From assembly GCF_001677475.2 (NCBI RefSeq), contig NZ_CP012498.1: 64,000 bases of DNA; one strand, given 5' to 3'. The number at the start of each line of letters is the position of its first letter. Position 1 is the first letter of the stretch. This document shows positions 60,001 through 64,000 of the stretch, piece by piece. Source of the stretch: Escherichia coli. GTDB taxonomy: Bacteria; Pseudomonadota; Gammaproteobacteria; Enterobacterales; Enterobacteriaceae. The position numbers were made by a program.

Positions 60001-63000
60001 ATGCCCTGGCAAAAATCCGGAAATGATGACGCTGGCGGGGAAAAATCTCCGCCTTTTCCTGCCGGTCCCCGGAAAGAGCAAAAGGATGTCGCCGCAGGCT
60101 CCGCTTTACCCGGCCATGCAGGGCATGGCCTTGTGGGATTTCAGTTATGTGGCCTCAGCGTCGTGTGCGGGCTGTGCCGTGCCTCCATCTTAGCCGGGCT
60201 GGCGGGGATGCAAGGGTAAAATGCACGCGGCGGTCACCCGGTCCCTCCTTCCCGTCTGCCGTGATTTTCCGGTCGTTCACCCGCTCAGATTTCGCGGTCT
60301 CACCCTCCAACTCCCGCCAGCCGTGTGCGTCAGGCTGCGGCTTCCCTTGCGCCCCTGCATCCCCGCCTTATCGCCCGGCTTTTATGGAGGCACGGCACCG
60401 CCCGGTGTCGCGGAATATGTGAACAATGGAGGAATACATCATGCAGTATGCGAAACCTGTCACCCTGAATGTTGAAGAGTGCGACCGCCTTTCTTTTCTG
60501 CCTTACCTGTTTGGTAACGATTTTCTGTATGCCGAGGCGTATGTGTACGCTCTGGCACAAAAAATGATGCCGGAATATCAGGGAGGCTTCTGGCATTTCA
60601 TCCGCCTGCCGGACGGTGGCGGTTACATGATGCCGGATGGCGACCGTTTTCATCTGGTCAACGGTGAAAACTGGTTTGACCGCACTGTGAGTGCTGATGC
60701 CGCAGGTATCATTCTGACGTCTCTTGTGATTAACCGCCAGTTGTGGCTGTACCACGACAGCGGGGATGCGGGGCTGACACACCTGTACCGGATGCGTGAT
60801 GCGCAGTTGTGGAGCCACATCGAATTTCACCCCGAATGCAACGCGATTTACGCAGCACTGGACTGATTACCGGACGGGGCGGCAATGCCGCCCCTGTAAA
60901 GGAGGCGAAGAAAAATGAACATCAGTACGGAAACCCGCGAAATTCTGCGTAAATACAAAGCCGTGATTAATGCGCGGCGTCGTGATATGGGGCAGAAACC
61001 GCTCACCACTGCGCAGATTGTTGATGAAATCTGCGATTTTGTGGCGAATCAGCAGGCTGTTTTCCTGGGCGGTCACTACATCTTACAGGCCAGCAGAAAC
61101 AGGTGATACAGGGCAGGCGGTGGAGGCCGCCTGTCAGCCCGCGCGAAAACCCCTGGCAGGCTGGCGCCTGCCGGAAGGGAAGCGGGCCACGCTGGCGCGT
61201 CGCCCGTTACCCTTCCCGTTTGTGATGTGTCTGACTCAGGAGTGTTTCTTTCTTATGTTATGGAACTGTTCCTGATGTTGTTGTTCCTTTATCTGCTGCT
61301 CTGATTCTGACTACTGCAGTGTTGTCCTGTCTGCCTGTCGGGTAGCAGCGGCACATTGCTGCGCCGCCGCCCCCTAAGAACGGAGCGTGCGAGTTTCCCC
61401 GCACTCCGCTCAAGCCTTTATAAGTGCTTTCGGTGAGCACCGGCTTCCCTGCTGTGTAACTGTCGGTGGCCGTTCGGATGTAACAGCTCGAGATTGGTCA
61501 GTTCGTCACTACTGCCCATAACTTTCCTGATCCGGTGATGTATATTCCATCCGGTCTGGTTGGTTATGGGTTGTCCGCACTGCGGGCAGTGTTTCCCCTG
61601 CCTCTTCCAGAGTTGAACTACTGTCTTCATCTTCTTTGATTTGCCTTTCCAGATTAGATCCAGACGACGTTCAAAGTAGATTTCCATTCCGGGGGTGTAT
61701 GGTGTTGCTTCGCCTTTGATTTTTATATGGCGCTTTATCGGTGTTTCCATTGCCCGGAAGAGAGTCAGAATTTTCCCTTCCGGGGTTATGGCTTTAAAGA
61801 TCCAGCGCCTGTCTTCAAAGGAGAAGTATCGTCCGGCGATCCACCGCAATCCTTTCCGGGGATGCCGTCTTACACACCATCGCCATATAGCTCGCCAGAT
61901 TTGGGTGTCGACATAATTAAATGTTTCTTTCGCCACGACGTGTCGGTGATAGGTAGCCCATCCCCGGATCACCGGGTTTAGCTGGCCTATCAGTTTCCAT
62001 GCCGGGAGCGTCGGATTGCGTTTAATTATTTCTCTGACTTTACAGAGGAAGTTCTTCAGGTTTTTCTTCGACGGTTTAATCAGCATTTTACCGTTGTACT
62101 TCCTGACGTTCTGCCCTAAAAAGTCGAAGCCTTTATCTATATGTGTGATCGCTGTTTTTTCTTCCGACAGTTCCAGTCCTCGTTCGCGCATGAAAGCTGC
62201 AATCAGTGGTCTGACCTCATTTTCCAGCAATTCACGGGAGCTGCCTGAACAGATGAAATCATCAGCATATCTCACATAATTCACCTGGTGCTTTGCACTG
62301 TGATAACCACTTTTCCTGAACGTTTGCATCAGTTCCTTCTCCAGTCCGTCCAGTGCCATGTTGGCGAGAACAGGGGATATGATGCTTCCCTGCGGTGTCC
62401 CGCTGTTCGTATGGTTAAACACGCCTCTTTCCATGTAACCTGCTTTCAACCATTTTTTAAGCAGTCTCCTGTCCATCGGAATATGGGAAAGCAGCCAGTC
62501 ATGGCTGATGTTATCGAAACACCCTTTAATATCGCCCTCCAGTATCCATTTGGGCGATACTTTCTGGCTCATCCGCAGAAAAATGGACTCAATGGCGTCA
62601 TGCGTGCTGCGCATTGGTCTGAAACCATAGCTGTTATGGTCAGCAGTGGTCTCGGATACGGGTTCCAGAGCCAGCAGCCACAGTGCCTGCATGGCCCGGT
62701 CCCTCATTGTGGGTATGCCCAGCGGTCGCGTTTTGCCGTTTGATTTTGGGATATGTATTCGCCGTAGTGGCTGTGGTCTGTAACCACACAGATTCAGGCT
62801 GCATATCCCTTCCCATTTCTCCTTCGGTGTGTTCCATATTTTTCCGTCAATACCAGGTGTCCTTTTACCGGTATTTTCAGTTACACGCCTGACAGCCACG
62901 GCTTTGCCGGAGAATGAGCGGGTGAGGATGCGCTGTAGTTCTCTGACCTGCCGCCATTGTTGCTGTCGGGTTGCCTTTGCAATCCGTAACTGTAGCTTTC

Positions 63001-64000
63001 GCACCCGGGCATGACATGCTTTCCAGTTTATGGTGTGCCAGCCTGTCGGGTGGGGTATCGTGGACACACTGATGTGTGTATTCATCTCGCTGATATCCTT
63101 TTGACTGCTTTACAGCTTTTCATGCAATTAAAGACCAGACGGAAGTCTGCCCGCTTTCGCGTCGGGGAACCTGCCCCGTATCCCGGTTATTACAGCCGGG
63201 CATTCGCTTTTTCCGTCCTCCTATGCCCGCACCGCTAACAGTGTTCCTTGCGGTTCACCTGCCTGTGAGGCAGCGATACGGGTTTACCAGGTTCCGCTTA
63301 ACATACAGAGGGTCAGGGCGGGTTCTGTCTCTTCACCGGGGTCTCTGCGCCCATGTGCTCCCTGTGCGCGAGGTAGCAACCGGACCCCGTACCTTTTGGT
63401 TCAGGCCTGTCAGCATCTTTGGCCTGTTGCCGATAACGGTGTTTATCAACAGTTCACATGTGTTAACCCTTCTGACCAGCCTTGCTCTCCTGCCGCATGA
63501 TGCTTGCAGCAAGGTAAAGCCCCTCACGGGGCTTTACCCGGGCTGACGCCCGGCTCTCGTTGTCCCGGGAGCTTCAGACCCCGCCGTTGCCGGCAACGCC
63601 TGTCCCGGTAGGCTACAGCTAATGGGATAGCTGGTTTTATCAATGTAAAACAATACGTTAAACGACTTCCTGTCGCACGCGCCCCTTCGGCTCCCGGCTG
63701 CCTGGCGGCATCCGGTCATCAGGCCCGACTCCGACTGGCAGCTGCTGGCGCACCTGCCAGTCTCCGCCGAACCCGCTGGCGCGGTTTCGGGCTGTCGCTA
63801 CGGTCCGATGCGTGAAAACCCCCGGCTTGCAGCGACCGGAACGGTCGTGCCGCCTCTGTCGCGCCGTGGCCTGCGCTCCTGGCATCCCGGCAAAAGGCCG
63901 CCGGGATGTGAGGGGCAACGCCGTTTCGCGCACGCGCTCTTCGTCGTTGCGGCGGGTGCCTGCCCGTTGTTGTATCCGGTGCCATACACTCGTTTAAGCC

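Follow-up and report, generated by a model that had tools for sequence, protein, structure and literature searches.

A pHN7A8-type group II intron at the edge of a leading-region repeat in Escherichia coli: homing site, exon recognition and a probably impaired copy

The stretch of DNA considered here comprises 64,000 nucleotides (nt) of the Escherichia coli contig NZ_CP012498.1 (RefSeq assembly GCF_001677475.2) and is referred to as the window. Close to its end it harbors a genuine, uninterrupted, full-length bacterial group II intron, here called intron 2 to distinguish it from a further group II intron (intron 1) in the same window. All coordinates of intron 2 refer to the minus strand. The intron encodes its own reverse transcriptase and is flanked on the 5' side by a GC-rich repeat of the plasmid leading region and on the 3' side by a small open reading frame (ORF):

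63678-61337, minus: group II intron 2 (2342 nt), delimited by Rfam matches at both ends and by joined exons that equal the empty site at 100%
63485-63634, minus: 5' part of ribozyme domain I (RF02012)
61418-63085, minus: intron-encoded protein, 555 amino acids (aa), composed of reverse transcriptase, maturase (X), DNA-binding region and HNH endonuclease (Pfam RVT_N, RVT_1, GIIM, HNH)
61378-61411, minus: domain V, a 34-nt hairpin with the AGC triad (RF00029 alignment and sequence)
61337-61374, minus: domain VI, with a bulged branch-point A at 61343, 7 nt before the 3' splice site (RF00029 alignment)
63679-64000, minus: GC-rich, non-coding ssi/Frpo-type leading-region repeat, the 5' flank, which runs off the window (similarity to the F plasmid)
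60915-61106, plus: conserved, uninterrupted 63-aa leading-region ORF adjoining the 3' flank (annotated at the same position in F, R64, pHN7A8 and others)

The two ends of the ribozyme were identified in an Rfam scan, where family RF02012 (group-II-D1D4-7) matches positions 63634-63485 (121.7 bits, E 3.8e-25; gathering score 34) and family RF00029 (domains V-VI) matches positions 61413-61337 (60.1 bits; gathering score 40). The intron begins with GTGCG at 63678, where the minus-strand sequence opens GTGCGACAGG, and ends at 61337 with ...CTACCCGAC, the minus-strand sequence closing ...GCTGCTACCCGAC. These termini, GUGCG and ...GAC, follow the GUGYG/AY rule for bacterial group II introns, and the 3' end ...UACCCGAC/U is found in 37 of the 43 related introns listed. 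The AGC triad of domain V and the bulged A of domain VI, 7-8 nt from the 3' end, are features by which group II introns are recognized. Because the joined flanks, i.e., an 80-nt sequence composed of 63718..63679 and 61336..61297, are 100% identical to the empty site of the intron-free plasmid NZ_AP042571.1, both junctions of intron 2 are fixed to the base. The same query finds 340 records at ≥99% identity, and in a search of plasmids with the joined flanks >2000 records span the whole junction without an intron. An earlier note on this DNA had placed the intron at 61327-63678 with canonical boundaries and had proposed the comparison with intron-free plasmids; the boundaries are canonical and the 5' end is exact, while the 3' end is displaced by 10 nt.

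The protein encoded in domain IV has the composition typical of group II introns, i.e., reverse transcriptase and maturase (X) domains with the optional DNA-binding and endonuclease domains. The description of a 555-aa reverse transcriptase/maturase/HNH protein in the earlier note is borne out by the four Pfam domains; in addition, the YADD motif is present and the NCBI group II reverse transcriptase/maturase model TIGR04416 yields 383 bits against a cut-off of 300. The closest relative of known structure is the T.el4h reverse transcriptase (6ME0_C, E 1e-174, residues 12-553), whereas other PDB matches are far weaker (LtrA, the protein of the Ll.LtrB intron, 1.8e-45; GsI-IIC, 3e-40). T.el4h, or Th.e.I3, of Thermosynechococcus (PDB 6ME0, 6MEC) resembles the window protein in the layout of its HNH motifs, but its host is cyanobacterial, its target is unrelated and it retains three residues, G, G and C, that are lost from the window protein (see below). 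The EcI5 (E.c.I5) intron has been characterized experimentally; its protein is 55% identical to that of intron 2, and the two introns share class, order of protein domains, the layout of the exon-binding sites (EBS2a, EBS2, EBS1 and EBS3) and the 3' end UACCCGAY. Both T.el4h and EcI5 are assigned to chloroplast-like class 1 (CL1) in PMC8643678. Exon recognition by intron 2 is of the IIB type, i.e., EBS1 and EBS2 are accompanied by EBS2a, and a separate EBS3 is the partner of exon position +1. Judged from the presence of RVT_N, from T.el4h as the best solved relative and from this mode of exon recognition, intron 2 is a member of the IIB1 ribozyme/CL1 reverse transcriptase class.

By its near-identity and shared insertion point, intron 2 is the already known 2,343-bp pHN7A8-type intron of IncF plasmids. 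With ~120 nt of flanking DNA included at either end, it is 98.8-99.0% identical to copies on E. coli plasmids, and the intron of pHN7A8 and of the FII-33 (F33:A-:B-) plasmids shares with it ~99% nucleotide identity, the orientation, the homologous insertion point by the 63-aa ORF, and EBS1, EBS2 and EBS3. Canonical copies (L001; pGUE-NDM, L007) are 2343 nt long, and pHN7A8 (NC_019073) and pGUE-NDM encode an identical ltrA protein, WP_012372796.1. In the literature the element appears as a "2,343-bp group II intron" in pHN7A8/FII-33 plasmids (PMC8765060) and as a "putative group II intron ... downstream of ycjA" (PMC6052338). EcI5 of pO157 was considered as another candidate for the identity of intron 2 and was rejected, with 55% protein and ~67% DNA identity and a different site and orientation. 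Most of intron 2, with its flanks, is present in 313 of 5426 complete E. coli genomes, and it also occurs on Klebsiella, Salmonella and Shigella plasmids; its 5' junction is common to at least 1011 PLSDB plasmids and its 3' junction to 787. The exact protein of the window was found in draft assemblies only. Copies of the E. coli type, with 98-99% protein identity and an E. coli plasmid flank, also reside on short contigs assigned to Streptomyces morookaense (L015) and to an Erysipelotrichaceae metagenome-assembled genome (L017), where they probably reflect contamination or mis-binning.

The usual target of this intron, as seen in empty sites, reads ...GAGCCGAAGGTGCGC^CCGGCAGACAG, with the natural core GAGCCGAAGGTGCGC^CCGGCAG, and in typical filled plasmids it is split by GTGCG...CCCGAC. 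To the elements of the intron that recognize the target correspond the intron-binding sites (IBS) of the exons, and the positions of both sets in the window are:

63429-63436, minus: EBS2a (U, 63436) and EBS2 (AUCGGC, 63434-63429), by homology to the EcI5 sites
63369-63364, minus: EBS1 (GCGCAC), in a hairpin loop of domain I, by covariation
63331, minus: EBS3 (G), in the only alignment column to covary with the 3' exon's first base
63679-63692, minus: IBS2a (A, 63692), IBS2 (GCCGA, 63691-63687) and IBS1 (GGGCGC, 63684-63679), from the sequence
61336, minus: IBS3, the first base of the 3' exon, A (CC in the usual target), from sequence comparison

For the covariation analysis 80 related introns were gathered from genomes, their ends were determined by profile searches and domain I was aligned; the sets used for EBS1 and EBS3 contain 37-39 introns. 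In EcI5, with the numbering of PMC8643678, EBS2 (252-257, followed by A258) and EBS2a (U250) align with AUCGGC and U of intron 2. Here, EBS2 pairs with GCCGA (-13..-9) and EBS2a with A-14 of the 5' flank, and over 39 introns the EBS2 region covaries with IBS2 to an extent that was not reached in any of 2000 permutations. The EBS1 loop pairs with exon positions -6..-1: in 39 introns the mean is 5.15 with the intron's own exon vs 3.85 with the exons of others, and no permutation out of 2000 gave a value as high. A second EBS1 candidate, ~130 nt after EBS2 and with 4-bp matches in EcI5 and intron 1, was discarded, as it displays no covariation with the exon (477 of 2000 permutations). The EBS3 column has a Watson-Crick fraction of 0.89 and a mutual information of 1.27 bits, compared to 0.29 bits in the next best column. 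All four elements, EBS1, EBS2, EBS2a and EBS3, pair perfectly with the usual target; EBS1 forms six of six pairs with the usual GTGCGC and five of six with GGGCGC of the window, and the EBS3 G pairs with C+1 of the usual target while A+1 of the window is unpaired. A sister intron in Pantoea sp. AS-PWVM4 (L016, 1904-4234), 80% identical, occupies the corresponding position in a diverged element that adjoins a DUF905 gene and shows two compensatory EBS1/IBS1 changes. These patterns reveal functional constraint on the recognition elements, and the Pantoea sister points to a long association of the intron lineage with the leading-region element.

The earlier note had suggested searching the 5' flank for an IBS motif or a terminator-like hairpin. 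IBS2a, IBS2 and IBS1 were located as listed above; no terminator-like hairpin was found upstream of intron 2 on the intron strand. A dependence of targeting on a hairpin was also considered, where IBS2 and IBS1 would be presented in the 13-nt loop of a 6-bp stem formed by the usual target. This stem is lost in the variant target of the window and is therefore not required for insertion.

The target is the oriT-distal end of an ssi/Frpo-type repeat, and no gene is disrupted. This agrees with the earlier description of the flanks, i.e., the ORF at 60915-61106 (plus strand) on one side and GC-rich non-coding DNA (63679-64000) on the other, without an obviously disrupted gene. The target element is ~0.66 kb long, GC-rich and non-coding, and up to three copies are found per plasmid. 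Window positions 63816-64000 are 90% and 86% identical to the Frpo1 and Frpo2 regions of the F plasmid, respectively, and the oriT-proximal 0.45 kb of the element matches, at 97% and 89% identity, the regions that precede ygeA/B and ssb in F, named the single-strand promoters Frpo1 and Frpo2 by Couturier et al. (PMC9849209). No -35/-10 hexamers of the single-strand promoter were recognizable in a linear scan. Published descriptions place the intron only "in a 77-aa hypothetical ORF"; this ORF and others called across the site are probably spurious, i.e., arginine-rich frames in GC-rich non-coding DNA.

In related plasmids the intron has the 63-aa ORF on one side and the following leading-region operon on the other, and all leading genes are encoded on the opposite strand. 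In transfer of F, it is the leading region that arrives first in the recipient, and transcription of its genes uses the transferred strand. From this standard geometry we infer that the sense strand of the intron is the transferred strand. When the transferred strand is folded, the insertion point is found at the base of a ~380-nt hairpin. F and pO157 are without the intron 2 target. In the IncI1 plasmid R64, homology is found ahead of ssb and ahead of a further leading operon, and it stops within a few bases of the insertion point. Segments 15763-15956 and 22099-22301 of R64 resemble the part of the repeat that adjoins the target, and in the copy that precedes ssb the end is a variant-like GGGCGC|A displaced by one base, a site at which IncI plasmids may receive the intron.

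Some further observations concern the surroundings of the repeat. The window, like many plasmids, has just one ssi/Frpo-type repeat joining the 63-aa ORF directly to the small-ORF/DUF932 genes by oriT, and the ssb-psiB-psiA-hok block of F is absent there, a pattern expected from recombination between repeat copies. In the lineage of the window, this link is interrupted by the insertion sequence (IS) IS110. The six assemblies of the lineage carry an IS110-family transposase gene on the strand of intron 2 and ~750 nt upstream of it; in L008, a longer relative of the window, it is found at 7667-8653 (just past window position 64000). This gene lies in or beside the same ssi/Frpo-type element and could give read-through transcription of intron 2.

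The window copy is close to, and yet distinct from, the canonical one, with 27 differences over 2601 nt and 19 over the 2342 nt of the intron. The ribozyme core and all EBS elements are unchanged. In domain I, the window has one C fewer in a five-C run near 63342, a change seen in the window only and not in six sister assemblies. Compared to the pHN7A8 intron, the window copy has a variant target (T>G at -5; CC>A at +1/+2), 6-7 amino-acid differences, which include G234S, G525S and C539G, and this missing domain-I C. The variant target reads GAGCCGAAGGGGCGC^AGGCAG (junction GGGGCGC^AGGCAG) and is mismatched to EBS1 at -5 (G at 63683, T in the usual target) and to EBS3 at +1. Because the same variant flanks are found in six independent assemblies that encode an identical protein, they are not a sequencing error; the variant site is a natural paralogue or allele of the target.

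The conservation of the three substituted residues was assessed among 68 non-identical relatives. G234S affects the PQGG block of the reverse transcriptase, at a position with G in 65 of 66 relatives. The other two are in the HNH domain, with G in 42 of 46 relatives at position 525 and C in 40 of 41 endonuclease-bearing relatives at position 539; at the three positions T.el4h has G, G and C. The three substitutions taken together with the two exon mismatches suggest that the endonuclease, and perhaps the efficiency, of the window copy is compromised, and this copy is probably impaired for mobility though uninterrupted. The term "intact", used in the earlier note, thus holds for the open ORF and the uninterrupted intron but not for the residues G234S, G525S and C539G or the pairing at -5 and +1.

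By analogy with EcI5 and T.el4h, both studied by experiment, intron 2 would first be transcribed, and the protein, translated from domain IV, would aid splicing of the RNA. The resulting lariat-protein particle would locate its DNA target by the EBS1-IBS1, EBS2-IBS2, EBS2a-IBS2a and EBS3-IBS3 pairings and by protein contacts. The RNA would then reverse-splice into the top strand, the HNH domain would nick the bottom strand and the reverse transcriptase would copy the intron into DNA. In the lineage of the window, the intron would have entered the paralogous variant target and would have gained its three substitutions at near-invariant residues afterwards. Recombination with a canonical filled site would not readily produce the variant flanks, and retrohoming of the window copy's ancestor into the mismatched paralogue is therefore most likely. 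The occupation of two target variants and of the homologous site in Pantoea may be taken as indirect evidence for mobility, as may a laboratory evolution experiment in which a putative group II intron of an IncF plasmid entered the leading region of an IncI plasmid (PMC10104558).

From the above discussion, the best overall explanation is that the window harbors a known pHN7A8-type intron which follows the target rules given here and is present as a probably impaired copy, and we hold this explanation with considerable confidence. What is shown here is the intron's identity, class, boundaries, target and pairings; its splicing and mobility, and the impairment of this copy, are inferences. Some observations weigh against the explanation. 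In pGUE-NDM there are three homing sites (4982, 10407 and 13744), identical from -38 to +20; the oriT-farthest copy alone holds an intron, and the other two are empty despite a reverse transcriptase of intact appearance. High mobility should lead to their occupation, and these empty targets argue against it. A sigma-70-like promoter was found upstream on the intron strand neither in the window nor in the longer relative L008. One relative carries a serine after the PQG motif. The identity of intron 2 with the intron that moved in the laboratory evolution experiment (PMC10104558) could not be confirmed.

Other explanations differ mainly in how active the window copy would be. That it is a fully active mobile intron, in which the substitutions and exon mismatches are tolerated, is in our view unlikely. 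In its favor, the ORF is open with YADD present, domains V and VI and all EBS elements are canonical, the ~7 non-synonymous vs 10 synonymous changes from the canonical copy do not indicate free drift, and insertion into the mismatched variant target evidently happened once; the mismatches at IBS1 -5 and IBS3, the change of the conserved PQG block (G234S, with G in 65 of 66) and the two HNH changes, C539G (C in 40 of 41) and G525S (G in 42 of 46), all argue for an impaired copy instead. At the other extreme, the intron could be a dead relic that does not even splice and is passively carried by the plasmid. The derived substitutions at invariant residues, the nucleotide missing from a domain-I stem in the window only, the lack of a detected upstream promoter and the unfilled identical targets in other plasmids would all fit such a relic, which we nevertheless regard as quite improbable since the catalytic parts of the ribozyme are unchanged with high Rfam scores, the maturase (X) domain shows no change at conserved positions among those examined, and just 19 differences over 2342 nt separate this copy from the canonical one.

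A different kind of explanation is that the plasmid has co-opted the intron, e.g., to insulate or modulate the single-strand promoter repeat or to limit recombination between repeats. The intron is always found at the edge of an ssi/Frpo-type repeat, in multi-repeat plasmids the oriT-farthest copy alone is occupied, and the intron is kept in about a thousand conjugative plasmids. Against this stand the many close plasmids without the intron that are still conjugative (PMC8765060), a distribution that fits a few insertions followed by plasmid spread, and a sequence with nothing beyond an ordinary selfish intron, so that we consider co-option very improbable. An intron of another class, e.g., class C (IIC), which has a small ribozyme and no endonuclease domain and inserts after terminator hairpins, would be compatible with the hairpin-rich flank, but EBS2/IBS2 and EBS2a are absent from class C (PMC8643678) and present in intron 2, as are the endonuclease domain with its HNH motif and RVT_N in the protein; moreover, the intron strand shows no terminator-like hairpin ahead of the site, and the small hairpin of the usual target is not retained in the variant. 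The chance that intron 2 is of another class is therefore close to nil.

The presence of two introns within the window had been interpreted in the earlier note as a retrohoming hotspot, with introns of different lineages. The first of these is:

57932-53114, minus: group II intron 1, identified by a further RF02012/RF00029 pair on the minus strand, its boundaries confirmed by L008, which is without intron 1

The gene that intron 1 occupies, in antisense orientation, encodes a leading-region DNA methylase. An IS21-family element (istA, 53677-55176; istB, 55173-55928) divides the reverse transcriptase gene of intron 1, and downstream of this element the C-terminal endonuclease part of the protein survives. 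The 5' junction of intron 1 occurs in just 67 PLSDB plasmids. As had been claimed, the reverse transcriptases of the two introns are distinct (56% identical), and the introns are far from near-identical, with DNA identity of ~66% over 1.1 kb and 85% over domains V-VI. Because a domain-I Rfam family and RVT_N are shared by both, the introns are, by this comparison, different species of one class, IIB1/CL1; "different lineage" is accurate for the species but not for the class. Intron 1 resembles intron 2 in class, strand and location in the leading region, but it has its own set of IBS and EBS elements and its own target. The hotspot interpretation fails on this point, with intron 1 in a methylase gene, intron 2 at the edge of an ssi/Frpo repeat, and separate pairing sequences for each. 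A third site near the leading region is occupied by EcI5 in pO157, also an F-like plasmid backbone, where it has the partition genes on one side and the leading-region genes on the other (its neighbors are sopB and a DUF1281 gene), in an orientation to the leading genes opposite to that of intron 2. The presence of several CL1 introns in the leading region, each at its own site, fits the known habit of bacterial group II introns to reside in mobile DNA (PMC3522654) rather than a shared hotspot; the abundance of introns here is put down to its being a plasmid leading region. With respect to the transferred strand, intron 1, intron 2 and the Pantoea sister agree in orientation and EcI5 is reversed, which are too few independent events for a conclusion. 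Elsewhere in the window (9433-9555, minus strand) there is a full-length match, at 146.6 bits, to the isrC family of Hfq-binding small RNAs (RF01387).

A wider possibility, which we consider improbable, is that the intron lineage is a specialist of the ssi/Frpo repeat in IncF, IncI and Pantoea plasmids, where it would occupy the oriT-distal edge in the sense of the transferred strand, with homing possibly coupled to conjugation. If so, incoming single-stranded DNA would present the target without a need for unwinding or for the endonuclease, and synthesis of the complementary strand would supply the primer. This scenario would explain the spread between plasmid families, the tolerance of endonuclease-defective copies and the choice of one repeat copy.

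Intron 2 is a common, annotated passenger of IncF resistance and virulence plasmids, in use as a marker of the FII-33 lineage, and is of little importance overall. What is new here is the definition of its homing site and of all four exon-binding elements. The window copy exemplifies, in nature, an intron that occupies a mismatched paralogue of its target as its endonuclease domain decays. Two points are of modest value, the mapped homing site and the insertion by a promoter repeat: the target edge adjoins a single-strand promoter repeat that drives early leading-region genes, and insertions there might affect plasmid establishment.

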